NCBI GenBank assembly: GCA_041913245.1
Contig: JAYSFT010000003.1
Span: 2,181 to 66,180, forward strand
Direction: 5' to 3'
Length of the DNA stretch: 64,000 nucleotides
Source of the DNA: Rhodospirillaceae bacterium
Lineage (GTDB): Bacteria; Pseudomonadota; Alphaproteobacteria; Rhodospirillales; Rhodospirillaceae
Of this stretch, positions 14,597 to 57,591 are shown in pieces. The position numbers were made by a program, and so were the translations under genes. Positions within the stretch are counted from its first letter, which is position 1. Each line of letters starts with the position of its first letter. The notes under the pieces were generated by a model that did no database searches, was not told the origin of the DNA, and saw only the letters and a program-made list of their open reading frames with translations.

Positions 14597-14607
14597 GTGG
14601 GTTGTCC

Positions 14608-16215: not shown

Positions 16216-16228
16216 GTGTCCCCTCATC

Positions 16229-17860: not shown

Positions 17861-17909
17861 GAATTTCCCCGGCGAAGCTTACGCCGCGGCGCACGAGGAC
17901 CGCCAGTCC

Positions 17910-18914: not shown

Positions 18915-19014
18915 CCCCTCGGCGTGAAAGCTTGTGTGTTCCCTAAACGCGCCGGTGAAGGCCGCGTCCGTCCCAGTCATTATATGTATATACAATTTTA
19001 TAATTGTCTATACA

Positions 19015-24487: not shown

Positions 24488-24703
24488 GCGTGAGCCTCGG
24501 CGTGGGGTTGCGTGAGGTCGCGGGACCTGATTTTCCGTCGTTCGCTCGCGCGCCGAAGCGTATCCCCCACGGCTTCGACGCGCGGCGCATTGAAGACCAT
24601 CGCCGCGGCGTTGGCAATCGCCCGGAACGATAATTTTTCCCAGAACAAAATCGGTTCGCGGGTGTTGATATTCCTGGGCTCCATCACAACGGGCGGAGGA
24701 ATC

Positions 24704-32347: not shown

Positions 32348-32349
32348 AT

Positions 32350-34278: not shown

Positions 34279-34390
34279 GAACTGTCCGGCGGGTGCTTTG
34301 TTCCGCTAAATCTATTGGCGCGTGCAGGCGGCCCTCGATAACGGCTAAGCTGCACGCAACGATTGACGATCACATGCGAGGAACAGCGCC

Positions 34391-35517: not shown

Positions 35518-37911
35518 TTAGTCCGCCGGCGGCGCCACCGCGCAGGCCGTCGTCATGTCGCTGACCGCGCCCGTGCGCACGCTGACGAGCAGATACTGCA
35601 TCAAACCGTCGAATCCGTCCTTCAGGCGAACGTTATAGGCGCCGATCCCGCTGTGCGCGGGAAGCTCCAACCCCCTCTCAATATCCACGACCGAGAGCGC
35701 GATGTTGCCGCCCGCCGGCACCTCGCTTGTCGTAAAATCGCCAAGCGCGCGGCCGTCGAGCGCGTCAAACACGGCAAGCTCCGCGACAGCGGCCGCGGTG
35801 CCGGCATTGTAGAGCACCAGAAGGGCAACGTTCTCTTCCTCGATCGCCGAGGCCCGCACGGCGATGGCGTCCCGCGCGCTTGCGGTGGTTCCAGCCCCGC
35901 AGGCCGACAGATTGGTCGATGCGCCGCGCCCGTTATGGCGCAGGACGTGCTGAACGAAGCCCGGGAAATCGCTTTGAACCATTAGGCGCAAAAACGGCGA
36001 GGCCTCATCCACGGCCGGCAACATATCGGCGACGGAAAACGCGCGCGAACTGTTCGGAGCGATGCTCACGCTGTCCCAACGCCCCATACGCGAACCGCTC
36101 GCGGCGTCGAAGATATCCACATGAATGGGAGCCGTCCGCGGGCTGGGATTATAGACCCGCAAGATCGATTCAAATTCGGCCGACGCCGGAAAAATCATGC
36201 CCATTTCGCTTGAGGACTGCCCGGCGCCCGCCGCGCCGTCCAAGGCACAGACCGTCGTCATATCCGTCATCAGTCCGGCGCCCTGGTTCGCGATCACTTG
36301 CTGCAATGCGCCGGAAAAATCGTTCTCGATTTTCAGGACCCAATGACCTGTGTCCCACGCGGGCGTCACCCGCGCCGCGCTTTCGAGCTGTCGAACCGGC
36401 AGCAGGAGTTCGCCGTCCACGGGCACCTCGGCCGTCGTGAACGCGCCGACGCGGCGGCCGTCGCGCGCATCGTAAATGCCGATTTGCGCTGCGGCCGCCG
36501 TCGCGCCCTGGTTCTGGACGACGATCGACGCCGGGTAGCCGTCATTCAAATTCGAGGTATGGACGCCGGCAATCTGGCGGCCCGCGCGGGCCACACCCGC
36601 TGAACATGTGCTGAGGTTGGTGAGGACGCCGTAGGCGGGGCGGTGCAGGACGTGCTGGAATGTGCCGGTCATCGCGCTCGATATCACGGCCGAATAAGTC
36701 GCGGGCCGGTTGCCCACCTGCAATGCGGCTTCCACCTCGCGGATTGAATATTGAGGGGCCGCATTGGGGGCAATGGAGGGGCTTCCCCACGCGCCTAGAA
36801 ACCGGCCGTCGCGGCTGTCGTAGAGCGCAATACTGATAGTTCCGGAGTCGCTGCCGGTGTTGTGAATCCGGAAATACGAAATGGCGTTCGGATCGACGCC
36901 TGAAAAAATCGCGCCTTCGCGGAGCAAAGGCGTGAAACTCCGGTTCATCCGCGCCGGACCCTTGGTGATTTCGCCGACGTTCTCAAACGTATTGCCGGTC
37001 AAGGTCGCGGTGATCGCGGTGAAGTTATTGACCGCGATGGAGTTCGACGCACGGTTGACGAACGAACTGCCGGTGATGGTCAGGCTGCTGACGTCGTGCA
37101 GGGACTTTTCCGCGCCAAAGGCGATCATGCTGTTGTTGCTGGTGCGCGACCCCTGGGTCACGCGCACACCCGTCAGAACGGCCTCGCCGCCGTTGGGCAA
37201 ATCGACGGCGTAACTCGGGGTCCCGGTGACGCCGTCATCGAGCACGGTATTCGTGATCGTCGTCTTCAGGGCGCGGCTTTTGATATCGTGCCCGACCTTC
37301 GTGCCCGCAAAGACACTGTCGCTGACAACCAGATGCGCGATGGCGTTGATATAGATGCCGTGCGTATAGCCGTCTCCCGCGCCGTTTCCTGAAAAGATCG
37401 ACCGGCGGATCGTCACGAAGGCGTCTTTATTGCCGTTGGCGAGGATGCCGTTCTGATTGTTGTTGAAGGCGCAGGTGTCGACCGTGAGACGCCCCGCCTG
37501 GTGGCGAATCCCGGCGCCGTTCCTACCGTCGGAATCCGTGACGTTGGCGCCTTCGAAGGTAATCTTGCGGACGGTGAGGTCGGCATTCACCACCAGAAGG
37601 CCTTTTCGGTTGGAGATCGGCTTGGTGGCGCGCAGGACCGCGCCGCGCCCCGCCCCTTCGATGGTCAGAGGCTTATCGATGGTGGCGACGTCATCGAGAT
37701 ACACGCCGGCATCGAGCACGATGCGATCGTTCGGCTTCGCGGCGGCGATGCCCGCCTGCAAAGTCTTTAAAGCCCGTCCAGGCCCCACATTGATTTCGGC
37801 CGCGCGCGCCGGAAGAGCCGCGTACGCAAGAAGTGCGATCACCGAAACGGGAAGCCGTCGCGCCCGCGAACAATCGCGGCTTGCTTCCTTCGACAACAAC
37901 TTGCGTAACAT
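35518..37911 (-). CDS. Secreted protein: N-terminal right-handed beta-helix domain plus two copies of an uncharacterised A-B two-domain module
   Basis: Start at ATG 37911 (MLRKLL...ALLAYAALPARAAEINV). Beta-helix-like repeats follow (GAGIRHQAGRLTVDTCAFNNNQNGIL; THGIYINAIAHLVVSDSVFAG...). Four C-terminal domains of about 100 aa follow. They end ...FQHVL..LTNLSTC, ...MTDMTTVCAL, ...FVQHVL..STNLSACG and ...VSDMTTACAV. Confidence 0.75.
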   Translation of the reverse strand: MLRKLLSKEASRDCSRARRLPVSVIALLAYAALPARAAEINVGPGRALKTLQAGIAAAKPNDRIVLDAGVYLDDVATIDKPLTIEGAGRGAVLRATKPISNRKGLLVVNADLTVRKITFEGANVTDSDGRNGAGIRHQAGRLTVDTCAFNNNQNGILANGNKDAFVTIRRSIFSGNGAGDGYTHGIYINAIAHLVVSDSVFAGTKVGHDIKSRALKTTITNTVLDDGVTGTPSYAVDLPNGGEAVLTGVRVTQGSRTSNNSMIAFGAEKSLHDVSSLTITGSSFVNRASNSIAVNNFTAITATLTGNTFENVGEITKGPARMNRSFTPLLREGAIFSGVDPNAISYFRIHNTGSDSGTISIALYDSRDGRFLGAWGSPSIAPNAAPQYSIREVEAALQVGNRPATYSAVISSAMTGTFQHVLHRPAYGVLTNLSTCSAGVARAGRQIAGVHTSNLNDGYPASIVVQNQGATAAAAQIGIYDARDGRRVGAFTTAEVPVDGELLLPVRQLESAARVTPAWDTGHWVLKIENDFSGALQQVIANQGAGLMTDMTTVCALDGAAGAGQSSSEMGMIFPASAEFESILRVYNPSPRTAPIHVDIFDAASGSRMGRWDSVSIAPNSSRAFSVADMLPAVDEASPFLRLMVQSDFPGFVQHVLRHNGRGASTNLSACGAGTTASARDAIAVRASAIEEENVALLVLYNAGTAAAVAELAVFDALDGRALGDFTTSEVPAGGNIALSVVDIERGLELPAHSGIGAYNVRLKDGFDGLMQYLLVSVRTGAVSDMTTACAVAPPAD

Positions 37912-38050: not shown

Positions 38051-39268
38051 TTACACGACCGGCCTGATGAGACCCCTGGGCCGGTAGCCGAGCGACGGGA
38101 AGACCGCCTTAAGATTGTCCTCGCCGCGGCGTTGGACGAGAATCTCCTGCAGGACCTGCCGCACGTCCGTGGTGACGCGCAGGTCCCCTTCCCTGAGATC
38201 GGCGGGCCGCAAGCCCGGCCATTCGCCGTAAATGCGCCCACCGTTCACGCCGCCGCCGAGCACGAACATGAACGAGCCGGCGCCATGATCGCTGCCGCCC
38301 GCCGTGTTCTCGTCGAGACGCCGCCCGAACTCCGTCATGGTGACGACCGTCAGGCGGTGCTGAACGGCGGCGAGATCGGTCCAGAAGGCGGCAAGACTTT
38401 GTGAAAGGTGCGCTGCGGCCGGCGGGAAATAGCTGTTCATATTGTAGTGGTGGTCCCAGCCGCCGAAGTCGACGGTCGCCACCTCGAGGCCGACATTCAT
38501 TTTGACGATATCCGCGACCGAACGTAAGGACGCCGCGAAACCGCCGGCCGGGTACGTCACGCCGCCGGCCGGCAACCGCCCGAGACTTCCTTGCACGCTG
38601 CGGACCATGTCCACGGTGGCGCGCGCCGAGGCGGCTTGCGGAGTATCACCCGCATTCAATATCTCGATCACATTGAGATTGTAGTCGCCGCCCGGAACAT
38701 TGAAGTCGCGCACATCGGGGATGGCGGCGACCCCGCGCCTCCCCTGGAGCGGCGCATGAATGTCCGGCGCGCTGGAAACGGCGCCCAGATCCGCGAGCGT
38801 CAGATCGCGCGCCGCCAGATGGCGGGCAAGCCAGCCGCCGAGAATGGGCGCGTCGCCCTCGGTGACGCCCCGCTCCATCATGTTCTGGCTTTCAAAGTGA
38901 CTGCGCGTGTCGGTCGGCAGGCCCGCCGCGTGAACCACCGCAAGGCGTCCGGCGTCGAACAAGCCCTTCAACTCCGGCGCGCTCGGGTGCAGGTAGAACG
39001 GCACATCGTCCAACGGACCGAGCGGAAGGCCGGCATTCTGGCCCTGCGCGGTCACCTTGATCGTCGGACGGCGGGCTTGATAGTCGGGGTCCTGGGCAGG
39101 CGCGACCATGGTCAATCCGTCGCAGCCGAAACGCAGGAAGACCACGACGAGGATATCGCGCGATGTCGATGTCTCTGCCGAGAATGCCGCGCGGACACCG
39201 GGCGCAAAGGCCGACAGGGCGGCGCCGGTGGAAGCCGATTTCAACAGTGTGCGGCGGGAGAGGGTCAT
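38051..39268 (-). CDS. DUF1501 domain protein (Tat-exported, sulfatase-like fold family)
   Basis: Tat signal MTLSRRTLLKSASTGAALSAF. Contains TRSHFESQNMMERG, FGGWDHH and MTEFGRRLDENTAGGSDHGAGSFMFVLGGGVNGGRIYGEWPGL, the DUF1501 hallmarks. Confidence 0.9.
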   Translation of the reverse strand: MTLSRRTLLKSASTGAALSAFAPGVRAAFSAETSTSRDILVVVFLRFGCDGLTMVAPAQDPDYQARRPTIKVTAQGQNAGLPLGPLDDVPFYLHPSAPELKGLFDAGRLAVVHAAGLPTDTRSHFESQNMMERGVTEGDAPILGGWLARHLAARDLTLADLGAVSSAPDIHAPLQGRRGVAAIPDVRDFNVPGGDYNLNVIEILNAGDTPQAASARATVDMVRSVQGSLGRLPAGGVTYPAGGFAASLRSVADIVKMNVGLEVATVDFGGWDHHYNMNSYFPPAAAHLSQSLAAFWTDLAAVQHRLTVVTMTEFGRRLDENTAGGSDHGAGSFMFVLGGGVNGGRIYGEWPGLRPADLREGDLRVTTDVRQVLQEILVQRRGEDNLKAVFPSLGYRPRGLIRPVV

Positions 39269-39274
39269 ATGGGC

Positions 39275-40885
39275 CTACCGCATCGCGAATTCAGGAGACG
39301 TGGCGATGAGAAGCGCCAGACGCCGCAGCGCATTCTCGATATTCGTGATCCCGCCCGAGGCATAGGCGGCCATGACGCCCGGCGAGGTCATGACATCCTT
39401 GAGCAATGCATCCATGGATGCCTGCGGCAGGGTGTAGCCCACCATCCTGCCGACCCAGTATTCCACAATGTGAATGGCCGAGTCGGCGACCGCCGCCGGT
39501 GTCTGCTCCCAGAAGCTGGTGCGGAAAGAAGGATGCACCAGCACGTCGAACATCACGTTCCAGAAGTGGTGGTTGCCGGCGCTGGAGAGCCAATGCGCGT
39601 CCGTATCGGGCCGTCCGTCCGGCGTCGGCCAGGCATAGAGTCCGTCACCCAAGCCAAAGAGCGCCATGTAGGCCTCATCGTAGGCATTGATGATGGTGTC
39701 TGTGGTACGGAACAGCGCCATCAGGCGCTCATAGGGCCGGCGCAGCTTCGCGGGCGGATTGCCCATCTCCGGGCTGAGGAGGATGACCTCCATCACGCGC
39801 CCGATCTGGTCGGGCGCGTCGATATTCGCCGTCCAAGCGGCCATGGCGCGGTCGAGCACATTCTGCGGCGGAGAGTCGCCGAAAATGCGCCGGCAAATCT
39901 TGCCAACGACAAAACGCGCTGTCGCGGGATGCGCCGCCAGAAGGTCCAAAATCCGCTGCCCTTGCGCCATGGGGCCCTGAAAGGCCGTGCCGGACAGATC
40001 GTTGCCCATGAACACGCCCACATCGTTGTTATGCTGCACGGGATTGAAGACAAACCGTCCGGTGAACGGCAGCGGGCCGCGCTCGCCCTCCTGGCCGTGT
40101 TCCAACGTCCAGCCCGAGAACGCGCGTGACGCCGCGACGATGTCCTGGTCGGTGAAATGCGAGTTCACCCTGAAGGGACCCGCCGAAACCTGCGGCAACG
40201 CGGCATCGGCGGAAACACCGCGGTAGGCCTCCGCGCCCAGCGTGTGAAGCTCAAGCAGCTCGCGCACGTAATTTTCCGTCGGCCGGCCCGCCTTGCTTTC
40301 GGCGTTATTCAAATAGCGCAGCATCGACGCGCTGCTCGCCACCGTCTCGAGGAAGGCGCGGAAGTTGCCGAACACGTTGGGCCGGATCACTTCGTTCTCA
40401 TAGACGATCAGCGCGGCGGCGCCGTAGACATCCTCGTTGCGGCCCACGTTGAAATGATTGGCCCAGAAATCGGCCATGAATTCGCGCAGCTGAAACCTGG
40501 AATGAACATTGCGGATCCAGGCCGCCGCGTTCAGTTCCTGTTGAATACGGTGCCGCTCGTTCGGAGCGATGGAGATTTCGGTCTTGCCGACCATGTCCCA
40601 GATCGCCGGAATGTCCGTGTACAGATAACGCAGAGGACGGCGCTCATCGACCGCGGGCCATCCCGGGCTTTTACCGGCGGGCAATTGGACCGCGTAGGCA
40701 ATGCGCATCGTACGCGCCCTAAGGTGTTCCTCGATACGCGGCTCATCACCCGGCGGCGGTTGGAGCTGCGTTGCCACCCAGGCGGGCCATCCCGTCTGCT
40801 GAACGGCGGCCACCTCGGCATCGCGGGCGCCGAAGGTCACCCGGCTGAGCGCTCTGTGTTCGAAGCTTCCTGTGGACGGCAGCAT
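39275..40885 (-). CDS. DUF1800 domain protein
   Basis: FWANHFNV, LLELHTLGAEAYRG and the usual pairing with DUF1501. Start taken at ATG 40885 (AGGAAG Shine-Dalgarno, 8 nt after the porin stop). The track start 40921 would overlap the porin gene. Confidence 0.85.
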   Translation of the reverse strand: MLPSTGSFEHRALSRVTFGARDAEVAAVQQTGWPAWVATQLQPPPGDEPRIEEHLRARTMRIAYAVQLPAGKSPGWPAVDERRPLRYLYTDIPAIWDMVGKTEISIAPNERHRIQQELNAAAWIRNVHSRFQLREFMADFWANHFNVGRNEDVYGAAALIVYENEVIRPNVFGNFRAFLETVASSASMLRYLNNAESKAGRPTENYVRELLELHTLGAEAYRGVSADAALPQVSAGPFRVNSHFTDQDIVAASRAFSGWTLEHGQEGERGPLPFTGRFVFNPVQHNNDVGVFMGNDLSGTAFQGPMAQGQRILDLLAAHPATARFVVGKICRRIFGDSPPQNVLDRAMAAWTANIDAPDQIGRVMEVILLSPEMGNPPAKLRRPYERLMALFRTTDTIINAYDEAYMALFGLGDGLYAWPTPDGRPDTDAHWLSSAGNHHFWNVMFDVLVHPSFRTSFWEQTPAAVADSAIHIVEYWVGRMVGYTLPQASMDALLKDVMTSPGVMAAYASGGITNIENALRRLALLIATSPEFAMR

Positions 40886-40893
40886 GATGCTTC

Positions 40894-43149
40894 CTAGAAG
40901 TCGTAACGGGCCGAGAGCCAAACGAGATGGGCGGAATAGCGCGGCGACGTGATGCCCGAGCCGAGAATCTGCGGCACCGGCGCGGCGCCATAGCCGTATT
41001 GCCAGTCATTCGTGGTGTGATGCTGGAACATATAACCGACGCGCAACGTCGTATCGGCGCGCACTTTGTAGTCCCCTGTAAGGTTCACATTGTGCGTCAC
41101 ATCGCGCACGTCCGGGAGGGGAGCCGTGTTCATCACCAGCGCGAAATTCGATCCGATCGCGTTGAACCGGCTGGCGCCGTCGGAAACATAGTAGCCGGCG
41201 CCGACTTTCAGAAGCTGAGGGACTGCATCCCAATCGGCCTTGACGCCGACCGTGTGAATGACATCGCGGTTCGCCGTACTCCAGTTCTGGGCCGGATTGG
41301 AGAGATTGACCGTCCCCATCAGGTACCCGGTCAGATCAAACTTGATGCGCTCGAAGCTGTAGAAGGCCGTCGCCGTGAGCCGCTTGGCGAGCACGTAGGA
41401 CAAGTTGGCGTCGAGTTGCACGGATTCGGAGCGTTGCAGGCCCAGCGGCGAGTTCTTGTAGTCGTCCTCGGCATAGAGGCCGGCCGCATCGAGCATGAGC
41501 GCCGGGCCCAGTTCAACGGTGGCGCCGCCCTTCGCTTCATTGCGTTTGCGATCCGCCATATTGAATTTGCGCAGCAGCGGATGTTCGATGGATTGATTGA
41601 ACGGCGAGGCGTTCAAATAGCTTTCGGTGTGACTGAGATTCCACGGCAGCGTATCGTCGTAAATCGATCCGCTTCGGCTGGCGTAGGCGTAGGCGACCCA
41701 GGCGGAGCCGGCGGTGAATGTCGTCAGGAGCTTGGCTCTGAAGCTGTGCTCCGAAGTATCGGAAACCTGTTGATATTTCCGCGCGCGGAAGTCGCCGACA
41801 TAAGAAATCGTCAGGCGGGTGCGCGCGGCGAGGCGGACGCCGACATCGGTTTTCGCCTGCTGGAACGTAAAGCTGTGCGGAAGTTTGTAGCGGATATAGC
41901 GGCTGGCGCCCGGAACCAGCGGGCGGACCTGATCCTGGGCCTCGTTGGCGACGTAGCTATAAAGATCGATCGGCGAACGGTTGTCGCGGTCGTCGAGGGT
42001 ATAACCGGCCGAGACATCGACAGCCGAGGTGGGGCGCGCGGTGACGCCTAGAACGACATGCGCTTTGTACACCTTGCCGTCGAGCGAGGTGCGCGGCAGC
42101 GGTTCCGGCACGCTCAATTGCGTCATCGCGGTGTAGGGCAGGAATTCCTCGTCCTGCTTTTGCACCATGTAGGAGACGCGCGCCGTGACGCGCACCTTGG
42201 GCGAAAGGGCGTAGGCGCCGGAAATCAACGCCTGATGGGCGATGGATGACGGCGGCAAGCCATATTCACCGAAGGCATTGGGGTAACCCGACAGCGCGCC
42301 GCCGGGCCACAGGCCGCCGAGCGCGCGGTTATAGGGGTTCGGCACGCGCACAGACGCGATCCCGTTTGTGAAGACCGAAAGGTTGTAGCTGGCGGACCAT
42401 TGAAGGCGATCGCCCGTGAAAGCGAGCGACGCGCTGGCCTGGTCCGTCTGATAATCCACGGGCTGCGCGAAAAACACGCCGACGGCGGTGTTCATCTCGT
42501 GGCCGAAGGCGAGATTCTGCCCGCGCAACCCTTCCCGGTCACGGTGGCTTGCGCTCAAGCGAATTTCATAGCCTTCGCGCGGATTGACGACGATATCGCC
42601 GCCCGCGGCACGCCAATCGACCTTGAGGTCGAGAGGATGAAGGTTTTGCGCGAGGGCCGAGAAGCCGGCCGACGTATTGCTGCCCACCCAGGTGGAGGGC
42701 AGCGTCAGAAGCGTGCCGCCGCTTCCAATGAACGGCGTACGCGCGGAATTCGTGTAGGAGCGGGTAAAGCCGTCATAAAAGGCGCGGGCGCGCCAGCGTC
42801 CTTGCGTTCCGTAGCTCACCCGCGCCGAAATGGTATCGAAGCCGAAGACGTCGACCGCGGCATTCCAGTTCCGTGCGCCGCCCGAATCCCACGCGTCACC
42901 GCCGTCGAGCGCGCCGCGAAAGACCGCGAACGGTCCGCGTCCGATCGGGCCGCCATACCGTCCGACGTGGAAGGAGTTGATGTCCTGATACCCGACGCCG
43001 GCCTCGAAATAGCTCGTGGTGAGCGGCGGCGGCATGGTCACCACCGGGGTCGCGCCGAGTTCGAACGACCCGTCCTGCGCCCGCGCAGGGGTGACGGGCA
43101 GGACGAGACCGAGGAGCACGAGCCAGCGCTGGGGAACGGGAAATGCCAT
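40894..43149 (-). CDS. MtrB/PioB-family outer-membrane beta-barrel (porin of a porin-cytochrome conduit)
   Basis: Signal peptide MAFPVPQRWLVLLGLVLPVTPARAQDG. About 750 aa with alternating beta-strand patterns and a terminal ...LSARYDF. SYFEAGVGYQDINSFHVGRYGG and TPFIGSGGTLLTLPSTWV..NLHPLDLKV resemble MtrB/PioB N-terminal motifs as I recall them. It lies immediately downstream (8 nt) of a decahaem cytochrome gene. Confidence 0.7.
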   Translation of the reverse strand: MAFPVPQRWLVLLGLVLPVTPARAQDGSFELGATPVVTMPPPLTTSYFEAGVGYQDINSFHVGRYGGPIGRGPFAVFRGALDGGDAWDSGGARNWNAAVDVFGFDTISARVSYGTQGRWRARAFYDGFTRSYTNSARTPFIGSGGTLLTLPSTWVGSNTSAGFSALAQNLHPLDLKVDWRAAGGDIVVNPREGYEIRLSASHRDREGLRGQNLAFGHEMNTAVGVFFAQPVDYQTDQASASLAFTGDRLQWSASYNLSVFTNGIASVRVPNPYNRALGGLWPGGALSGYPNAFGEYGLPPSSIAHQALISGAYALSPKVRVTARVSYMVQKQDEEFLPYTAMTQLSVPEPLPRTSLDGKVYKAHVVLGVTARPTSAVDVSAGYTLDDRDNRSPIDLYSYVANEAQDQVRPLVPGASRYIRYKLPHSFTFQQAKTDVGVRLAARTRLTISYVGDFRARKYQQVSDTSEHSFRAKLLTTFTAGSAWVAYAYASRSGSIYDDTLPWNLSHTESYLNASPFNQSIEHPLLRKFNMADRKRNEAKGGATVELGPALMLDAAGLYAEDDYKNSPLGLQRSESVQLDANLSYVLAKRLTATAFYSFERIKFDLTGYLMGTVNLSNPAQNWSTANRDVIHTVGVKADWDAVPQLLKVGAGYYVSDGASRFNAIGSNFALVMNTAPLPDVRDVTHNVNLTGDYKVRADTTLRVGYMFQHHTTNDWQYGYGAAPVPQILGSGITSPRYSAHLVWLSARYDF

Positions 43150-43157
43150 GCCGCCGC

Positions 43158-44075
43158 CTACCGGGAAAGCCTGACGCCAGACGGATGGTTCGAGCCGTGC
43201 ACCGCGCTGTGGCAGTTCAGGCAAGCTCTGAGCACCATCTGCTTGGATGGCGACACGCCGCCGGGAAGGCTCGCGCCGCTGAAAGGCTGACTATTATGCG
43301 TGGAACTGTCGTGACAGTTCTGGCACAGGAACGGCGGGCGCTGCTTCAACAGGGACGCCTGGACCGTGCCGTGCGGCGTGTGGCAGATCGTGCACTGCTC
43401 CTGGACCGGCGCGTGTTCCCATAGGAACGGTCCGCGCTTTTCATCGTGGCAGGTCAGGCAGGTGTCGTTGACGGTCGCGCCGCGCAACATGGTTTGTGTC
43501 GGCGATCCATGCGGATTGTGGCAATCCGCGCAGGACATTCGCCCTTCGAGCACGGGATGATGCGAAGGCTTCAAGGCCGCCGCGCGTTTGTCCGCATGAC
43601 AGGAAAAGCAGATGGGCGCCTGCGTGGTTTTCACCAGCACGGGATCCTGCACGGTATGGGACTTGTGACAGTTCGTGCAGGCGATGTCCGAGGACTGATG
43701 CAAACTGCCCTGCCAGTGCACGGCCGTGCTGCCCTGATGGCATCCGGCGCAGGTTTCGTTGCGCTTTTCCACCGGGGACGCGCGCGGACCTGAAAACACC
43801 ACCGACGGCGGTGGGCGGACTTGTTCCCCGCGCAGGCGCGCAACGTGTTCGCGGCTATCGCCGTGACAAGACTGGCATCCCTGATCGGCGACACCGGTTC
43901 TCGCGTCCGCCTTCACCATGTGCGCGGCATGAAGGACCGAGGTGACCGCCAGCTGGTCGTGGCAATTCATGCATCCGCCAGGATCGGACGCGTTGCCGAG
44001 CGAGCGCTCTTCCTGCGAAGCCGCCGGCGCGGCGAACAAGACCACCGCCAGAAAGAGGGCGCGCGCCACGATCAT
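43158..44075 (-). CDS. Periplasmic decahaem c-type cytochrome, MtrA/MtoA/PioA/DmsE family
   Basis: 305 aa with a signal peptide. Exactly ten CXXCH motifs: CMNCH, CQSCH, CAGCH, CTNCH, CFSCH, CADCH, CLTCH, CTICH, CQNCH, CLNCH. Confidence 0.9.
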   Translation of the reverse strand: MIVARALFLAVVLFAAPAASQEERSLGNASDPGGCMNCHDQLAVTSVLHAAHMVKADARTGVADQGCQSCHGDSREHVARLRGEQVRPPPSVVFSGPRASPVEKRNETCAGCHQGSTAVHWQGSLHQSSDIACTNCHKSHTVQDPVLVKTTQAPICFSCHADKRAAALKPSHHPVLEGRMSCADCHNPHGSPTQTMLRGATVNDTCLTCHDEKRGPFLWEHAPVQEQCTICHTPHGTVQASLLKQRPPFLCQNCHDSSTHNSQPFSGASLPGGVSPSKQMVLRACLNCHSAVHGSNHPSGVRLSR

Positions 44076-44076
44076 G

Positions 44077-45009
44077 TCAGTTCCGCGCGGCGACGAAGTC
44101 CGCCTTCCCTGTATCGATGCTTAAGGTCTTTTCAAGCGAGACGTAATGGAAGCGCTGCGCCGCGTGGCCGGCATGCAGCGAAATGCCGATGGTATAATTT
44201 TTACCCGCCGCGAAGTCCTTATGCCCCTCGCCGGCCACCATCTTGCGGCTGAAGATGACGGTCCACTTCGTACCGCTCTCGGCGGCCTCGACGGCGACGG
44301 CCGGCGCGGCGTTCTCGGCGCGCTTTTCAAGGATCGTACCGTCCACGGCGACCGCGGGCTGCCCCGGATTGAGGCGCGCCTGCCAGTATTCGAGATAACC
44401 GCCTTCGGCGCGGATTCTATCGAGTTCCGAGGCCGGCTTGACCTCGGCCCCGCCCTTGCGGCTCAAGGAGACGCGCGAGCGCGACAGGTATTTCTGGGTC
44501 TCGCCGTTTCCGCCGCTCGGCATGCGCGTCAGATTGTCATGACAGGTGGCCCAGCAGCCCGCGCGCGCGGCCTCTGGCACTTTTCCATCATCGATCATCA
44601 CGGCGAGCTTGGTGGCGAAATCCTTGTCCATTCCCGCGTCCGGTTGCCGGCCGGGATCGACCTCGACACGGACATAGATATTCTGACCGTCGTGTGCCGC
44701 CTTCACGTTCGCCATGACGAAGCCCGGCTTCCCCGCGATCGGCGTGGGCTCGGTGCTTTTATCGTTCACAAGCAGCTTGCCCGAGGCCTTCTCCTCGCCC
44801 TCGTGACAGCCCGCGCAGTTCTTGCCTTCGCGGAATTTGCCGGCGCCGCTATGGTCGGATTGCGTCAGCAGCATCTCCCACGACATCTGCGCGGGATAAA
44901 AGAGAACGACGTCTTTGCCGCCCACTTTATTCCAATCGAGCGCCTGCGCTTCGAAAGAAAGAAAGAGCGCGGCGGAAGCGCATGCGAATTTCGAGATTCC
45001 GGATGACAT
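44077..45009 (-). CDS. Periplasmic c-type cytochrome with EB_dh/DOMON-like haem-binding domain
   Basis: Signal peptide MSSGISKFACASAALFLSFEAQA. One CXXCH (CAGCH) plus a CX3CH-like string (CWATCH). The overall pattern (..KLAVMIDDG.., ..YLEYWQARLNPG.., ..WTVIFSRKM.., ..IGISLHAGH...) recalls the cytochrome c-552/ethylbenzene dehydrogenase-like haem domain. Its stop is 1 nt from the decahaem gene start. Confidence 0.6.
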   Translation of the reverse strand: MSSGISKFACASAALFLSFEAQALDWNKVGGKDVVLFYPAQMSWEMLLTQSDHSGAGKFREGKNCAGCHEGEEKASGKLLVNDKSTEPTPIAGKPGFVMANVKAAHDGQNIYVRVEVDPGRQPDAGMDKDFATKLAVMIDDGKVPEAARAGCWATCHDNLTRMPSGGNGETQKYLSRSRVSLSRKGGAEVKPASELDRIRAEGGYLEYWQARLNPGQPAVAVDGTILEKRAENAAPAVAVEAAESGTKWTVIFSRKMVAGEGHKDFAAGKNYTIGISLHAGHAAQRFHYVSLEKTLSIDTGKADFVAARN

Positions 45010-45053
45010 CGGTTTCGTCCTCAGCCTATCGTTTGCGCGGGAGCGAGGGGCGC

Positions 45054-45635
45054 ATGAACACGGCAAACACTTCGGTCACAAGATACGGCGCCGCCGCCGT
45101 GGCGCTGCACTGGATCATCGCCGCCTGTTTGTTGGTTTCGGTGGTCCTGGGTTTGATCCTCGGCAACGTCGAGGAAAGCGAGTCCACGGAGCAGGCGCTC
45201 GCGATTCACAAGTCCTTCGGTATCGCGATCTTTGCCCTGATGCTTGCGCGCCTGGCCTGGCGCATGACACACCCGGCGCCGCCCCTGCCCGCGACCATGC
45301 CGGCGTACCAACGCGCGCTCGCCGCGCTCACACACGGACTGCTTTACGTCACGTTGCTGGCGATGCCCGTCGTCGGGTATGTCGCGGTCGCCGCGCGCGG
45401 CCGCGAAACCCGATTCTTCGGGTTGTTCGACGTGCCGCAGATGACACCGCTGAGCCGGATGCTGTCGCAGAACGCGACCACCGTTCACGTCTACGGTCAG
45501 TATGTGATTTACGCGCTGCTTATCGCGCATATCGGAGCCGCTCTCTACCATCATATTGTACTTAAGGATGACGTGCTGACGCGGATGCTGCCGCGCCGGT
45601 CCCCGGAGAAGAACGCGCCCCAGGCGACGGTCTGA
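45054..45635 (+). CDS. Cytochrome b561 family (CybB-like) inner-membrane dihaem protein
   Basis: RYGAAAVALHWIIAACLL, AIHKSFGIAIFALMLARLAWR, ALTHGLLYVTLLAMPVVGY and HVYGQYVIYALLIAHIGAALYHH show four TM helices with conserved His. Start at the internal ATG 45054. Confidence 0.85.
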   Translation: MNTANTSVTRYGAAAVALHWIIAACLLVSVVLGLILGNVEESESTEQALAIHKSFGIAIFALMLARLAWRMTHPAPPLPATMPAYQRALAALTHGLLYVTLLAMPVVGYVAVAARGRETRFFGLFDVPQMTPLSRMLSQNATTVHVYGQYVIYALLIAHIGAALYHHIVLKDDVLTRMLPRRSPEKNAPQATV

Positions 45636-45704: not shown

Positions 45705-46676
45705 TTAGTAGGAGATCCCGCCGCCCGGCAAACCGCCACCGTCGCCGCTGCTCTGCGGCGCGTTGACCGCACAGGTACTCGTCATATTGATCGAGACGGA
45801 GACGGCATTGTTGACGATGGTCTGGCTGACGAGCGCGGCCGGCGGAGCGCCGGAGGGATCGGTCACGATCATGTTCACGCGGATCTGCTCGGCGGTCGGA
45901 TTGAAGCCGATCTGGCTTTCGATCTGCGACCACGGAATGGTGTAGGACGCATTGGCCTGCGTCGCGAAGTCCATGCCGCCCGGATTGAGCAGCGTTCCGG
46001 TCGCTTCGTCGCGCACGAAGAAGCGATAGGTCACGGCCGCGTTGGCGAAGTTGTGGATTTCGATCTGCGCCGGATATCCGGCCGACGCGAGACGCGACGT
46101 GTGGATGCTGGGCACCATGATCTGGTTGGAGGCCGCGCTGCTGACCTGCGCGAGGCTATACTTGCAAACCGAGGCGTTCTCGAAATATTTGGCCGTTTCG
46201 TTCAGCGTGACGTGCTGATAACCGGCAAGCGCTTGCGGGCTCTGGATATAGAACGAGAACTGCACGTCGGCGTTATCGCGCGTCACGGCATTCGCCGCGA
46301 CCAGGATCTGCGACATGGAGAGTTGCAGCGTTCCCGCCGTCGGGACGTTGTAGGTGGCGGTTCCGTAAGCGGTCGCGGTTCCCGAACCGACGACCGTCAC
46401 GGTGAAGGTCGCGGCGGTGCCGCCGGCATTCACAAGACGCAGATAAGACAGGAACGGCGGCGTCACGTAGAGCGGCGCGACAACGGCATAGAGATTGCCG
46501 TTCACCGCCTGGGTGCGTTCACGGCCCGGCGCTCCGGCCGCGGGAACCGCGCCTTCGAACTGGCCCACGAGGAATTTCGCGGAGTCCATCGTGGTCGCCG
46601 CCTGGTCGGCTGCAAGAGCCGTCACGCTCGCGCCAGCGCACAGCATAGCCGTGAGCATTTTCAGACCCGTACGCAT
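45705..46676 (-). CDS. Secreted protein with one A-B two-domain module (paralog 1)
   Basis: Signal peptide MRTGLKMLTAMLCAGASVTALAADQ. Domain A runs ...SYLRLVNAGG...LAGYQHVTLNETAKYFENASVC. Domain B runs ...AGYPAQIEIHNFAN...SINMTSTCAV. Confidence 0.7.
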   Translation of the reverse strand: MRTGLKMLTAMLCAGASVTALAADQAATTMDSAKFLVGQFEGAVPAAGAPGRERTQAVNGNLYAVVAPLYVTPPFLSYLRLVNAGGTAATFTVTVVGSGTATAYGTATYNVPTAGTLQLSMSQILVAANAVTRDNADVQFSFYIQSPQALAGYQHVTLNETAKYFENASVCKYSLAQVSSAASNQIMVPSIHTSRLASAGYPAQIEIHNFANAAVTYRFFVRDEATGTLLNPGGMDFATQANASYTIPWSQIESQIGFNPTAEQIRVNMIVTDPSGAPPAALVSQTIVNNAVSVSINMTSTCAVNAPQSSGDGGGLPGGGISY

Positions 46677-46822: not shown

Positions 46823-47770
46823 TTAGCGGCCGTCCCCGCCGAGACTAGGAGGTTGGTTCACCGCGCACATGGTCGTCACGTTCAGGGTCGCATTGAGGCG
46901 ATCATTGATGACCGTCTGGCCCAAGAGGACCGCGGGAGCCGCGCCGGAAACGTCGCTGACCACGACGTTGGCGTAGATCTGGCTGGACGTCGGATTCCAA
47001 TTGATCTGACGTTCAATGTCGGACCAGGGAATGGTGTAGGACGCATTCGCCCGGGTCGGGAAGTTCATTTCACCGACGACGTTTCCCGACGTCGATTCAA
47101 TGATGGTGAACCTGTAAGTCGCGGCTGCACTGGCGAAATTGTGAAGCTCTATGGCGCTCGGATAACCCTGCACGGCCAATTGCGACGTGTGGACATGCGT
47201 CAGAATGGCGCTGGGCGCCACGGCGCTGATGGCGTCCTGGATCGTCCACTTGCAGACCGACGCGTTCTGGAAAAAAGTCGCGTCGGGGCTGTGCGTGACA
47301 TGCTGATACCCGGCCAGCGGCTCCGTGCTTTGCAGATAGAACGAAAAATTCGTATCGGGGGCGCGAATGGTGGCGCTCGCGGCGACCAGCACCTGCGACA
47401 TCGAGTATTGGATCGAGGCGCGCGACGGGATTTGGAAGGTCGCGGTGCCGTAGTTCGTCCCGGTGGGCGAGCCCACGACCGTCACGGTAAATGCGGCCAT
47501 CGCGGCGCCGCCGTTGAAAAGCCGCAGGTAAGAATAAAATCCGCCCGTACCGATGTAGAGCGGCGCGACGACCGCATAGGCGGACCCATTGACCGCTTGG
47601 GCGCGCTCACGAGTCGGCGTGGCGGTCACGGCGGCAGGCGCCCGCCCGGTCTGAAATTGAAGCGCATCAAGAGCGGAAGATCCGGCCTTCGCGGGATCGG
47701 CGGCCAAAGCCTGAAAAGCCCCGCCGGCCAACAGCAAAAACGCCCCCAGGGTCCCTCGAACGGACATCAT
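46823..47770 (-). CDS. Secreted protein with one A-B two-domain module (paralog 2)
   Basis: Signal peptide MMSVRGTLGAFLLLAGGAFQALAADP. Domain A runs ...YSYLRLFNGGA...LAGYQHVTHSPDATFFQNASVC. Domain B runs ...QGYPSAIELHNFAS...LNVTTMCAV. Confidence 0.7.
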   Translation of the reverse strand: MMSVRGTLGAFLLLAGGAFQALAADPAKAGSSALDALQFQTGRAPAAVTATPTRERAQAVNGSAYAVVAPLYIGTGGFYSYLRLFNGGAAMAAFTVTVVGSPTGTNYGTATFQIPSRASIQYSMSQVLVAASATIRAPDTNFSFYLQSTEPLAGYQHVTHSPDATFFQNASVCKWTIQDAISAVAPSAILTHVHTSQLAVQGYPSAIELHNFASAAATYRFTIIESTSGNVVGEMNFPTRANASYTIPWSDIERQINWNPTSSQIYANVVVSDVSGAAPAVLLGQTVINDRLNATLNVTTMCAVNQPPSLGGDGR

Positions 47771-48024: not shown

Positions 48025-48549
48025 GTGACGGCGAGCCATGAGGATGATTTTGCCCGGGCGCTGACGGCGCAACTGCCGGCGTTGCGACGGTATGCCACCG
48101 TCCTGGTGGGCAATACCGCCGCGGCTGACGATCTTGTGCAGGACTGTATCGAACGTGCGTTGCGCCAATGGACAAAGCTTGAGCATCTGGAACGGATCGG
48201 CGGGTGGCTGCGCTCCATCCTGCACAACCTCCATATCGACGGGCTGCGCCGGAGTCAGCGTCAAGGCATGACCGTGGACCTTGCCAACGCCGAAAACGAT
48301 TACGCCGTTGTCGCACCCGGACGCGATTCGGCGGCGGCCGTGGATTTCGACCGGGCGCTGCACCGCCTCAGCCTCGAGCACCGGCAGGTGCTTTTGCTGG
48401 TCGGGCTTGAGGGCCTTAACTACCGCGAAGTGGCCGAGGAGCTTGGGGTTCCCGTCGGCACGGTGATGTCGAGACTGGCGCGCGCGCGCGAGCGCCTGCG
48501 TTACGAGATGGAATTTCCGCCCACGTCGCATGTGAAACAAAAGTCATGA
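48025..48549 (+). CDS. ECF-family RNA polymerase sigma factor
   Basis: LPALRRYATVLVGNTAAADDLVQDCIERAL (region 2) and LEHRQVLLLVGLEGLNYREVAEELGVPVGTVMSRLARARERL (region 4). GTG start. A 4-nt overlap with the downstream anti-sigma gene indicates translational coupling. Confidence 0.85.
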   Translation: MTASHEDDFARALTAQLPALRRYATVLVGNTAAADDLVQDCIERALRQWTKLEHLERIGGWLRSILHNLHIDGLRRSQRQGMTVDLANAENDYAVVAPGRDSAAAVDFDRALHRLSLEHRQVLLLVGLEGLNYREVAEELGVPVGTVMSRLARARERLRYEMEFPPTSHVKQKS

Positions 48550-49289
48550 CCGAGCATATGCGACCGACAGAAGAAGAACTGCACGCGTTCATCGACGGCG
48601 AACTCGATGCCGCGCGGACCGCGGATATTGAAGCGGCGATTCACGCGGATGCCGAGATCGCGCGCCAGGTTCACGCTTACCGCGCGGATAAGGCGCGCCT
48701 GGCGCAGATCTACGCGCCGTTGCTCGAACGGCCGACGCCCGAGGAATGGCTGGCCAGGATCAACCGGCGGACCGTGGTTTCCCTGCCGGTCAAGACATCG
48801 CGCCGCGGCGTGATCGGCATGGCGATTGCCGCCAGTGTCGCGGCGGCGCTCGGCGCCACGATCGCCTATCGCCGATTCTCGGCGCAGGACGGCGAATCCT
48901 TGATCGCCGCCGCCTTGGCCGCACACACGATGGCGCGCGGCATCACCGCACAGCCCGTCCCGGACAATATGCTTGCGGAATTGGCCGGCGTTGCGATCAA
49001 GGCGCCGGATCTTTCAAAGATGGGGTTCTCGCTCGTCGGCATGCGCACGGTGGACGGACCCCGCGGCGGCGCGGCGGCCGTGCTGGCGTACCGCGATGCC
49101 GGCGAGCGGCTATTCACGCTCTATCTGAAACGTTCGCCGGGCACGCCGCAATTCGACATGATCAAGCGCGGCGATACCCGGATTTGCGTATGGCAGGACG
49201 ATGTCCTCAGCACGGTCATGCTGGCGGACGTGCCGGCGGCGGAAATGCTGCGGCTCGCCAGCCTCGCCTATTCGGGTCTTACGGCTTAG
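48546..49289 (+). CDS. Anti-sigma factor (single-pass membrane protein)
   Basis: The N-terminus EEELHAFIDGELDAARTADIEAAIHADAEIARQVHAYRADKARL is a typical anti-sigma N-domain. One TM segment (GVIGMAIAASVAAALGATIAY). It overlaps the sigma gene stop (ATGA). Confidence 0.7.
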   Translation: MTEHMRPTEEELHAFIDGELDAARTADIEAAIHADAEIARQVHAYRADKARLAQIYAPLLERPTPEEWLARINRRTVVSLPVKTSRRGVIGMAIAASVAAALGATIAYRRFSAQDGESLIAAALAAHTMARGITAQPVPDNMLAELAGVAIKAPDLSKMGFSLVGMRTVDGPRGGAAAVLAYRDAGERLFTLYLKRSPGTPQFDMIKRGDTRICVWQDDVLSTVMLADVPAAEMLRLASLAYSGLTA

Positions 49290-49292
49290 AAA

Positions 49293-50654
49293 TCAGCGCC
49301 CCGCGCCGAGGATGAGGGCTTCCGGCGCGAGCTGCGCTGGTGTATGCGGCGCCGTGACCTTGTAGTGCACGGCTTCGTCGTTGAAGGCGAAGCCGAGCAC
49401 ATAGCCGCCCAGCACAAGATCATAGACGAACTGGCTGCCGAGGATGAGGGCGGGGGTCTCCGGCATGAGGTACATCGTGCCGTGGCCGACCTTCCACAAA
49501 CGCCCCTCCTCATCCCAGCTCTCGCTATACACCGCGAGCCAGGTGTCTTCGTCGATATAAAGACGCCGGCGGGGCGCGATATGCGATTTGCCCGGCGCGA
49601 GCGTGCCTTCCACCACCCACACGCGGTGCAGTTCGTATCGCAGGGCATCGGGGTTGGCGTGCCGGGGGCCGAGAACGTCACGCGACGGCGTCAAATAGAA
49701 ACGGTTGTTGTTGTAAGGCACATACATCTCGGCCTTGCCGACCAGCTTGAAGTCGTAGCGGTCGGGGCCGCCGAAAAAGATGTAATACTCATCGAGGGTC
49801 TGGAACCCGGAGGCGTCGGGATCGGGCGTATCATATGACAGCGACGGGCCACGCCGCGCGCGGCGCTCGCCGGGCAAATAGCGCCAGGCCGCGAAGCGGT
49901 CGCGCACGATGTTCAAAGGCTGCCAAGCCAGATAGCCCTCGCCGTATTTGCCGGCGGGCGCATCGAGGATGTGCAGCGTCTTATAGTAGTGAGCGCCGGC
50001 CGTGGCGGGCGTAGCGTTCGGATAGTAGTAGGGGAAGTCGGCGACTTCCTTGTAGCGCGCCGTCAGGTCGATCCGGCCGTTGGCCGAGACGACATAGGTG
50101 CTGAGCCGGGTTTCGCGGGCCGCGCCCCAAAAGGCGAGCAAATGGTTCCAGACCACTTCGTGGCCGTTTTTCGGAATCGGAAAAGGAATACCGGCCGCGG
50201 CGTTCGCGACGCCGTTCGCGATCCCTTCCGACGCCGCGCGGGCCCGCGTCGCGTTCAGGAAGACATTGTCATAGACATATTGGGGCGCCGCCGCGGAGCG
50301 CCGCGTGGGATAGATATCCATCCGGTATGTTGGATATTGCGCGAACAGCGCCTTCGCGCCTTCGGGCAGCTTGGCCGCGTGCCCGCCGGCATTCGCGGCG
50401 GTAATGGAAAACAGCGGCTTGTCGGCCGAAAAAGGATCGGGACGTTTGTCCCCTTGCCGAAATCCGGGATCGGCCCGCGTGTAGCCCCCGGTCCACTCCG
50501 GGATTGTGCCCGCGGCATTCCCCGCGCGCTCGGCACCCATCGGCGTCAGCGCCCCTTTCAGGGCCTCCGCCTCCCCCATGCTGGCCGCTCCGATGGCGCC
50601 CCCGGACGCAACCAGCAGCCCAAAAACGATAAAAAGCAGGCCGTTCCGAGCCAT
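49293..50654 (-). CDS. DUF1329 domain protein (periplasmic/outer-membrane associated)
   Basis: FAAWRYLPGERRARRGPSLSYDTPDPDASGFQTLDEYYIFFGGPDRYDFKLVGKAEMYVPYNN and HRVWVVEGTLAPG are DUF1329 strings. Start at ATG 50654 (MARNGLLFIVFGLLVA...). Confidence 0.85.
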   Translation of the reverse strand: MARNGLLFIVFGLLVASGGAIGAASMGEAEALKGALTPMGAERAGNAAGTIPEWTGGYTRADPGFRQGDKRPDPFSADKPLFSITAANAGGHAAKLPEGAKALFAQYPTYRMDIYPTRRSAAAPQYVYDNVFLNATRARAASEGIANGVANAAAGIPFPIPKNGHEVVWNHLLAFWGAARETRLSTYVVSANGRIDLTARYKEVADFPYYYPNATPATAGAHYYKTLHILDAPAGKYGEGYLAWQPLNIVRDRFAAWRYLPGERRARRGPSLSYDTPDPDASGFQTLDEYYIFFGGPDRYDFKLVGKAEMYVPYNNNRFYLTPSRDVLGPRHANPDALRYELHRVWVVEGTLAPGKSHIAPRRRLYIDEDTWLAVYSESWDEEGRLWKVGHGTMYLMPETPALILGSQFVYDLVLGGYVLGFAFNDEAVHYKVTAPHTPAQLAPEALILGAGR

Positions 50655-50727
50655 TCCCGCCCCCTCCGCCATGACCGGCGGATAAAGGCCATGATAAGGT
50701 GGGCGAAGGCGTTCAACCAGACCATAG

Positions 50728-57576: not shown

Positions 57577-57591
57577 ACGCTCAACGTCCCC

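Follow-up and report, generated by a model that had tools for sequence, protein, structure and literature searches.

How could an MtrAB-type conduit in the outer membrane pass electrons to or from the quinone pool if its locus encodes neither a CymA-type tetrahaem cytochrome nor MtrC? This question is raised by a locus in contig JAYSFT010000003.1 of a Rhodospirillaceae bacterium (assembly GCA_041913245.1). We analysed a 64-kb stretch of this contig (the window), and all coordinates are positions in it. It includes genes for an outer-membrane beta-barrel, a decahaem cytochrome c, and a dihaem cytochrome c with an EB_dh domain, next to a divergent gene for a cytochrome b561. MtrAB-type conduits are the best-understood electron route between bacteria and minerals, humic matter, or electrodes. 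In such pathways, conservation is lowest, and understanding poorest, for the links in the inner membrane and the periplasm.

We think it probable that these genes specify an MtrAB/MtoAB/PioAB-type conduit through the cell envelope, with a dihaem, NirB-like carrier, and that the b561 takes the place of a quinone module of the NapC/CymA type. Electrons would pass between the quinone pool and the b561, whose two b haems would span the inner membrane; between the b561 and the dihaem cytochrome in the periplasm; and between the dihaem cytochrome and the MtrA-like decahaem at the periplasmic side of the outer membrane. The decahaem, seated in the 751-aa MtrB/PioB-like barrel, would carry them across the outer membrane. 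In the wider family, the quinone/quinol oxidoreductase would be a tetrahaem cytochrome of the NapC/NirT/CymA type, and a clade of Rhodospirillaceae from fresh water and activated sludge would use a dedicated b561 instead. A preliminary description of this DNA had put the components in the same order (b561, EB_dh cytochrome, decahaem, porin). That order is supported by synteny, by gene fusions, and by the b561 occupying the slot of the NapC gene; the electron transfer itself, the reactivity with quinone, and the extracellular substrate are what we infer from the sequences.

The conduit proteins and a conserved triad of genes

In our map of open reading frames (ORFs), drawn for 36-52 kb, the three minus-strand genes are separated by 8 nt (barrel and decahaem) and 1 nt (decahaem and EB_dh), and 44 nt separate the divergent starts of EB_dh and b561 (Table 1). 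ORFs and spacing are exactly as the preliminary description gave them. It was also right about the 305-aa decahaem with ten CXXCH motifs, the CAGCH and CWATCH of the EB_dh cytochrome, and a barrel of about 750 aa with a terminal aromatic residue (751 aa, ending in YDF). We chose the ATG as the start of the barrel gene because the upstream TTG at 43224 would run into the decahaem gene; relatives are also called at 751 aa. For EB_dh and b561, the same starts (310 and 193 aa) were called again on three independent assemblies with identical sequence.

The four families that had been named for these proteins (TIGR03509, TIGR03508, PF09459, and PF01292) all match with wide margins. The barrel scores 394.9 bits against PF11854 (MtrB_PioB; E = 1e-117) and 362 bits against TIGR03509 (cut-off 240), where the alignment covers positions 4-662 of the 662 in the model. 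Residues 79-749 of the barrel also match the solved MtrB of Shewanella baltica (6R2Q_B; E = 1.4e-44). The decahaem scores 281.7 bits against the DmsE-family model TIGR03508 (cut-off 192.2). It aligns end-to-end with the MtrA of the solved MtrCAB complex of S. baltica (6R2Q_A; E = 5.7e-69; about 42% identity), with the haem motifs in register. NCBI's pipeline gives close relatives the names "ethylbenzene dehydrogenase-related protein", "DmsE family decaheme c-type cytochrome", and "MtrB/PioB family decaheme-associated outer membrane protein".

The N-terminal CXXC of the Shewanella-type MtrB is absent from the barrel, which has no cysteines at all. This CXXC is the mark of the metal-reducing gammaproteobacterial subgroup of MtrB, so the barrel lies outside the Shewanella subgroup and is MtoB/PioB-like in that respect.

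A survey of the ORFs and haem motifs in the 64-kb window found no NapC/CymA-like ORF, and it found neither an MtrC/OmcA nor a further multihaem ORF, which bears out the earlier statement that no CymA or MtrC is visible. The sole other ORF with a CXXCH encodes an unrelated protein of the PSCyt type, with one motif.

We scanned one genome per GTDB species with an alignment of EB_dh proteins, which gave 45 loci, and annotated these by phmmer with the window's proteins. In 42 of the 43 loci that reach past the EB_dh gene, EB_dh, the decahaem, and the barrel are encoded side by side (L031 and L032 end at a contig edge and are left out of this count). The exception is L037, which has NapC and EB_dh but no MtrAB within 10 kb. 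Each full-length decahaem of these loci has ten CXXCH motifs. Pairwise distances among the three proteins correlate at r = 0.94-0.97 (40 loci), so the triad was inherited as a unit.

The close clade includes 29 loci (EB_dh identity of 56-92%), from metagenome-assembled genomes (MAGs) of Rhodospirillaceae from lakes, groundwater, and activated sludge. Their gene order is DUF1302, DUF1329, anti-sigma factor, extracytoplasmic function (ECF) sigma factor, one or two novel secreted proteins, b561 (divergent), EB_dh, decahaem, barrel, DUF1800, and DUF1501. The distant clade includes 16 loci (EB_dh identity ≤52%), from other Alphaproteobacteria and from Gammaproteobacteria (Thiohalomonas denitrificans, Marinobacterium aestuariivivens, Lysobacteraceae, Steroidobacteraceae, and Methyloprofundus are among them), and these lack all of the genes that are specific to the close clade.

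The two clades differ in the gene next to EB_dh. A tetrahaem gene of the NapC/NirT family (PF03264) lies upstream of EB_dh and on the same strand in 15/16 distant loci, and is adjacent to it in most. In the close clade, a search within 10 kb found a NapC-like gene in none of the 29 loci, and 21 of them have the divergent b561. The b561 thus holds the slot that belongs to NapC/CymA in other loci. The swap of a NapC/NirT tetrahaem cytochrome c for a dihaem b561 would be a clean and testable case of non-orthologous displacement. As to the arrangement that the preliminary description had asked about, then, the triad is conserved, the b561 is conserved in part, and the conserved unit is larger than had been stated.

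Seven records are titled "Candidatus Marinimicrobia" (L014, L019, L028, L034-L036, and L053), which would imply a wide phylogenetic spread. We rejected this: their proteins are 56-84% identical to those of Rhodospirillaceae and they share the whole clade-specific gene order, so these labels are probably wrong.

In the locus from Marinobacterium aestuariivivens NBRC 111756 (L043 10852-14202), two overlapping ORFs stand in place of one intact gene both for the decahaem and for the barrel, owing either to frameshifts that make pseudogenes or to assembly errors.

The dihaem cytochrome and its probable kinship with NirB

The EB_dh protein scores 103.9 bits against PF09459 (gathering cut-off 33.3). 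Its haem motifs are C65-x-x-C68-H69 (CXXCH, residues 65-69) and C152-x-x-x-C156-H157 (CX3CH, residues 152-157). Both are invariant in an alignment of 20 homologues that extends down to 56% identity (alignment A1), and each full-length EB_dh homologue of the related loci has exactly one CXXCH and one CX3CH.

A profile comparison matched the EB_dh protein to the gamma subunit of ethylbenzene dehydrogenase (EBDH; 2IVF_C) with E = 1e-5. When its AlphaFold2 (AF2) model was compared to known structures with Foldseek, it matched 2IVF_C (E = 1.5e-8) and the NxrC structure 7B04_C (E = 4e-7), with probability 1.0 and TM scores of 0.42/0.59. The next matches were CBM9 and then the DOMON domain of dopamine beta-hydroxylase. 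As the first matches of the model are two gamma subunits that bind haem, from ethylbenzene dehydrogenase and from the anammox nitrite oxidoreductase, and DOMON follows, the predicted structure confirms a DOMON-like fold. The predicted local distance difference test (pLDDT) score of the model is 73.6 overall. In EBDH gamma, the haem b pocket has Met and Lys as ligands. Met138 of the window's protein, which is invariant, is aligned with NxrC's conserved Met region; the haem loops of the model have low confidence (pLDDT below 50).

This family is small: a profile search of 1.84 billion cluster representatives gave 136 clusters at E ≤ 1e-30. Among these clusters are fusions of EB_dh with NapC/NirT (PF03264; P0317, P0284, P0293, and P0239) and with MtrA-like multihaem cytochromes (P0328 and P0338). 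Two of the NapC/NirT fusions, P0293 and P0239, are encoded directly 3' of nirS (in L055 and L057) and before a cupredoxin and nirECFDLGHJ. A fused NirT-EB_dh gene also comes right after nirS on plasmid p4 of Azospirillum brasilense Sp7. In Stutzerimonas, NirT (tetrahaem) and NirB (dihaem) are encoded 3' of nirS, and fused NirTB proteins are found elsewhere (PMC13086519).

By BLASTP, the window's EB_dh protein aligns to the NirB half of a NirT-NirB fusion over its full mature length, with 31% identity, E = 2e-44, and both haem motifs aligned. Its identity to the fused NirTB proteins is 31-35% (E = 2e-44 to 4e-48). Because of this alignment and the nirS-linked fusions, we classify the EB_dh protein as a putative NirB-like dihaem cytochrome c, of the "cytochrome c-552" family of nirSTB clusters; the assignment rests on the fused NirTB homologues and PMC13086519. 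Kinship with NirB would explain why several homologues are named "cytochrome c-552" by Prokka or "NapC" by JGI. It would also link the denitrification carriers NirT and NirB evolutionarily to extracellular electron transfer. In Alpha- and Gammaproteobacteria, a NirB-like dihaem cytochrome with a DOMON fold recurs as a third partner of one MtrAB lineage and co-evolves with it.

In the nirSTB(M) clusters and the fused NirTB proteins (Stutzerimonas, Halomonas, and the p4 plasmid of A. brasilense Sp7), as in our family, a NapC/NirT tetrahaem cytochrome is followed by or fused to an EB_dh dihaem cytochrome with the same two motifs. The acceptor there is the periplasmic cd1 nitrite reductase, whereas the window has an outer-membrane conduit, and has a b561 in place of NirT.

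We also note that NirT-NirB fusions with one or two EB_dh domains lie between nirS and the cupredoxin gene at L055 6001-7800, L057 3603-6377, and L059 5266-6888 (A. brasilense Sp7 p4). PGAP labels them as "NapC/NirT family cytochrome c" only, which hides the DOMON-fold dihaem half.

The triad has been reported before. Gagen et al. 2019 described an operon, "cytochrome c-552 (2 haems)-MtrA-MtrB", in a goethite-reducing Telmatospirillum MAG, and proposed that the c-552 is extracellular and replaces MtrC (PMC6933298). Across its full length, the window's EB_dh protein has 49% identity to the c-552 sequence in their supplement (PMC6933298), and the two systems share the triad, its order, and the CXXCH and CX3CH motifs. 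The paper names neither the relationship to EB_dh or NirB nor a b561, and the sole CymA homologue that it reports is in a nitrate-reduction operon (PMC6933298). The window's clade differs by the addition of DUF1800/DUF1501, the novel secreted proteins, and the ECF sigma factor.

If Gagen et al. 2019 are correct, the EB_dh cytochrome would be a terminal reductase at the cell surface, in MtrC's stead. The gene order c-552, MtrA, MtrB does mimic mtrC-mtrA-mtrB; a localisation predictor put the c-552 outside the cell (PMC6933298); no other candidate for an outer cytochrome is encoded in the window; and the barrel of Thiohalomonas (L048) is followed by another EB_dh paralogue, which is larger and has a lipobox. 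Nevertheless, we consider a surface location very unlikely for the window's protein, whose signal is a plain Sec one (AXA) that lacks a lipobox. Furthermore, this domain is found fused to inner-membrane proteins (NapC/NirT and, as described below, b561), it is found in nir clusters, which act on a periplasmic enzyme, and all but one of the distant loci have the NapC-type gene upstream.

The second EB_dh cytochrome of the Thiohalomonas denitrificans MAG (L048 13545-15368) is encoded right after the barrel and has a lipobox-like LTAGC as well as a CXXCH and a CX3CH. We list it as a candidate outer-surface partner.

Cytochrome b561 and the direction of electron flow

The b561 scores 101.9 bits against PF01292 (cut-off 30.1). 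It had been described as CybB-type; its membership in PF01292 stands, but it does not appear to be an ortholog of E. coli CybB, as its score against the equivalog NF008566 is 74.5 bits and the cut-off is 170. It has four hydrophobic helices, and H19, H52, H145, and H159 are at least 95% conserved across 31 homologues. These proteins form a dedicated subfamily of their own, whose genes share contigs with those for EB_dh, and their identity to generic cytochromes b is at most 46%.

In one lineage, cytochrome b561 and EB_dh occur as a single protein of 494 aa (P0038), in which the N-terminal part is b561 and the C-terminal part is EB_dh. This fusion was found in two independent samples (L008 and L009), and both domains were verified with Pfam. 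The linker between the domains is the former signal peptide of EB_dh, and it is hydrophobic and is predicted to form a fifth transmembrane helix. The C-terminus of the b561 is cytoplasmic in E. coli CybB. A fifth helix after a cytoplasmic C-terminus would tether the EB_dh domain of P0038 to the inner membrane on the periplasmic side. Taken together, the fusions to b561, NapC, and MtrA-like proteins tie EB_dh to inner-membrane quinone modules on one side and to the MtrA family on the other, and they indicate that the EB_dh cytochrome is located at the inner membrane, not at the cell surface. Such a placement would revise the published model for Telmatospirillum.

Could the b561 be a mere neighbour, a CybB-like protein with an unrelated role (in superoxide or quinone chemistry), so that the conduit uses some other partner in the inner membrane? 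The b561 gene is transcribed divergently and is outside of the operon, it is absent from 8/29 close-clade loci, and the protein is like those from generic, widespread cytochrome b genes even though it is below the CybB cut-off. We think that this is unlikely, as the b561-EB_dh fusion exists, the gene sits exactly in the slot of the missing NapC gene, and the subfamily is a dedicated one on the same contigs. Also, the b561 and EB_dh genes stay adjacent down to about 57% identity of EB_dh while the outer flanks vary. The b561 is not a fixed partner: where there is no neighbouring b561, it must be dispensable or encoded elsewhere.

The 44-bp spacer contains both ribosome-binding sites and a conserved AAACGATAGGC motif. 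This motif is kept at -25 from the ATG of EB_dh in close relatives (L010-L013, L015, L016, L017, and L040), and in a first look at upstream alignments it was the sole conserved motif. On the plus strand, AAACGATAGGC reads TATCGT, a -10-like hexamer for b561, and its -35-like partner overlaps the start codon of EB_dh. The TATCGT element is the only sigma-70-like match in 15 kb. In scans for promoters and terminators, the matches were not above the expectation from shuffled sequence. The spacer had been taken to imply overlapping promoters and, probably, co-regulation; overlapping promoters are plausible, and co-regulation is at most a conjecture.

The well-studied conduits are MtoAB with CymA/MtoC and MtoD (Sideroxydans and Gallionella), PioABC (Rhodopseudomonas palustris TIE-1), and MtrCAB with CymA (Shewanella). 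Our locus resembles them in having a decahaem for an MtrB/PioB barrel, a periplasmic carrier, and a quinone module. It differs in that the putative carrier is a DOMON-fold dihaem cytochrome, not MtoD, PioC, STC, FccA, or PdsA; a b561 stands as the putative inner-membrane module where the others have CymA, MtoC, or NetBCD; MtrC/OmcA is missing; and the decahaem, at 305 aa, lacks the N-terminal extension of PioA. An analogy can be drawn with the eukaryotic CYBDOM proteins, which combine a cytochrome b561 (PF03188) with a DOMON domain that binds haem b. The fusion P0038 follows the same logic of a transmembrane dihaem b and an extracytoplasmic DOMON haem domain, but its b561 is from PF01292 rather than PF03188, and the DOMON domain of CYBDOM binds haem b; the resemblance is convergent and does not make them homologous members of one group.

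Two published proteins are precedents for parts of this arrangement. He et al. 2016/2017 described "Cytbc", a b561 fused to a dihaem cytochrome c that is encoded beside mtoAB in Gallionellaceae sp. KS, and hypothesised that it is the quinone module for MtoAB (PMC5566968). This is a precedent for a b561-type quinone module serving MtoAB, but the C-terminal part of Cytbc is described as a diheme cytochrome c, with no mention of a DOMON or EB_dh domain (PMC5566968). Baker et al. 2022 described "mtrA-DOMON", a nonahaem protein of group 6 mtrCAB clusters (PMC8805035). There too a DOMON domain is wired to an MtrA-family cytochrome, as in the MtrA-like fusions that we recovered, but mtrA-DOMON occurs in clusters that contain MtrC (PMC8805035). 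Neither paper describes a stand-alone NirB-like protein with a b561.

Full-text literature searches that linked DOMON or EB_dh to porin-cytochromes found no description of such a system, and in the literature we found no account of a b561 paired or fused with this dihaem cytochrome, of the replacement of NapC by b561, or of the extended cluster. The preliminary description had called the whole conduit variant undescribed. As the triad with its dihaem partner was already reported under another name (PMC6933298) and the NirB family is known, the novelty is narrower than that: what appears to be new is that b561 replaces NapC and is fused to EB_dh, that the dihaem cytochrome would be periplasmic, and that accessory genes are conserved with the cluster.

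MtrAB-type conduits are reversible (PMC8805035), so the sequence cannot decide the direction of flow. We lean slightly towards outward flow, in which humic substances or oxides of Fe(III)/Mn(IV) would be reduced, because the parental NirT-NirB module sends electrons from quinol to a periplasmic acceptor (PMC13086519) and because Telmatospirillum, the sole relative with physiology, was enriched as a goethite reducer (PMC6933298).

The same wiring could run inward, as in MtoAB/PioAB: electrons would be taken from Fe(II), Mn(II), reduced humics, or some other solid donor outside the cell, and the b561 would reduce quinone. We regard this as a real possibility, albeit a somewhat doubtful one. The barrel without a CXXC and the lack of MtrC are more like MtoB/PioB than like Shewanella MtrB; the PF01292 proteins FdnI, HyaC, and CybB mostly reduce quinone with periplasmic electrons; and the habitats of the cluster's carriers (fresh water, groundwater, and activated sludge) are mainly oxic or micro-oxic. 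Surveys of lakes score MtoA with MtrB as oxidative extracellular electron transfer (10.1101/2022.03.26.485925). Besides the behaviour of the NirT-NirB module, the goethite-reducing relative, and the reversibility of these conduits, what speaks against inward flow is that the window has no genes for carbon fixation or phototrophy.

Several observations count against the conduit as we have drawn it, with a NirB-like carrier and a b561. The haem-binding loops in the model of the EB_dh protein have low confidence. At the 8 close-clade loci without a neighbouring b561, EB_dh is an ordinary protein with a signal peptide. The quinone-reductase role that is usual for PF01292 proteins would favour inward flow. 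Finally, the conduit does not explain DUF1800, DUF1501, or the beta-sandwich proteins, which are discussed below. We still prefer the conduit with the dihaem carrier and the b561. As its carriers are abundant, uncultured Rhodospirillaceae of fresh water and activated sludge, the cluster bears on planktonic heterotrophs in the redox cycling of iron and humic matter.

Accessory genes and the rest of the window

Table 1. Features of the locus, by position in the 64-kb window
Feature	Position	Strand	Remarks
Secreted NosD-like beta-helix protein	35518-37911	minus	797 aa; weak match to TIGR04247
DUF1501 protein	38051-39268	minus	PF07394, 98 bits; twin-arginine signal RRTLLK; last gene of the conserved block
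DUF1800 protein	39275-40885	minus	PF08811, 308 bits; no evident signal peptide; about 8 nt past the barrel's stop
MtrB/PioB-family outer-membrane beta-barrel	40894-43149	minus	751 aa from ATG; signal peptide; 0 Cys; C-terminus ...SARYDF
MtrA/MtoA/DmsE-family decahaem cytochrome c	43158-44075	minus	305 aa; signal peptide; exactly ten CXXCH
Putative NirB-like dihaem cytochrome c, EB_dh/DOMON fold	44077-45009	minus	310 aa; Sec signal; CAGCH and CWATCH
Divergent spacer	45010-45053		44 bp, between the start codons of EB_dh and b561
Cytochrome b561 (PF01292), predicted inner-membrane dihaem b	45054-45635	plus	193 aa; four helices
Novel secreted protein	45705-46676	minus	323 aa; predicted tandem beta-sandwich; GYQHV, HTS, and HN motifs; two Cys
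Paralogue of the novel secreted protein (P0165)	46823-47770	minus	315 aa
ECF sigma factor	48025-48549	plus	Sigma70_r2/r4_2/ECF matches; divergent from the novel secreted-protein genes
Anti-sigma factor	48546-49289	plus	single transmembrane helix
DUF1329, LolA-like	49293-50660	minus	PF07044, 379 bits
DUF1302, outer-membrane protein	50728-52476	plus	PF06980, 406 bits

DUF1800 and then DUF1501 follow the barrel within a few nt in every close-clade locus that extends far enough, and the DUF1800 gene probably shares an operon with the barrel. Because DUF1501 has a twin-arginine translocation (Tat) signal and DUF1800 has none, their sequences suggest export as a pre-folded heterodimer, with DUF1800 as a Tat "hitch-hiker". 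A search of solved structures found no relatives of either protein. In the literature we found no function for them, only surveys of genomes from Planctomycetes, Verrucomicrobia, and Chlamydiae (PVC).

The novel secreted protein of 323 aa has no match in Pfam or NCBIfam. Its family has 79 known homologues, all from this clade of Rhodospirillaceae, and is encoded upstream of b561/EB_dh in nearly all of the clade's loci. In an alignment of the family (A2), GYQHV, H192, and the two cysteines are invariant, and many members end in a Gly-rich tail, GDGGG..GGGISY, with Y as the final residue. A fold search of the PDB with the AF2 model (pLDDT 80) gave only generic beta-sandwiches such as RbmA and ASRT, and the TM scores were low. 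In the 797-aa beta-helix protein, the C-terminal half consists of repeats of the same beta-sandwich module (hhalign against A2: probability 98.4%, E = 4e-15). The beta-helix gene follows DUF1501 in the closest relatives only (L004, L010, L012, L013, and L015), and it is absent in L006.

The ECF sigma/anti-sigma pair is beside the cluster in most close-clade loci, including the loci with the b561-EB_dh fusion. The position of the neighbouring DUF1329/DUF1302 pair is conserved in about 20 close-clade loci.

Might the conduit serve DUF1800/DUF1501 and/or the beta-sandwich proteins, as DmsEF serves DmsAB, and not mineral respiration? The two DUF genes are as close to the barrel gene as just described, their signals suggest that they are exported as a pre-folded pair, and the beta-sandwich family is confined to the clade, is almost always adjacent, and recurs as a module in the flanking beta-helix protein. 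Nevertheless, neither DUF has a known redox cofactor, a solved relative, or a function in the literature; the distant clade has the triad without DUF1800/DUF1501; and DUF1800/DUF1501 pairs occur widely without MtrAB. We consider this improbable. A more specific version is slightly less credible still: the conduit would supply the electron path for an enzyme system of the envelope that is new and is controlled by the ECF sigma factor, with DUF1501/DUF1800 and the His-bearing beta-sandwich proteins as its redox-coupled end-station and with b561 and the NirB-like cytochrome as its link to quinone. If true, this would give DUF1800/DUF1501 a first function, in parallel to DmsEF-DmsAB.

The remaining genes of the window, among them those for amidases and for glycogen metabolism, are ordinary ones for a heterotroph and give no clue to lifestyle. 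A glycogen block at 23117-34305 includes a glucose-1-phosphate adenylyltransferase-like protein, glycogen phosphorylase, 4-alpha-glucanotransferase, debranching enzyme, and branching enzyme. Three tandem paralogues of amidase (PF01425) with signal-like N-termini are at 13001-17878 (minus strand), beside a LysR regulator at 17913-19007. At 54593-57591 (minus strand), a DUF1552 protein (HXXSHH) lies beside a multi-domain PSD/PSCyt3 protein (DUF1592/1588/1595/1585/1587) with one CXXCH. These are "Planctomycete-type" families that are unusual in an alphaproteobacterium, and the pair is formally analogous to DUF1800/DUF1501.

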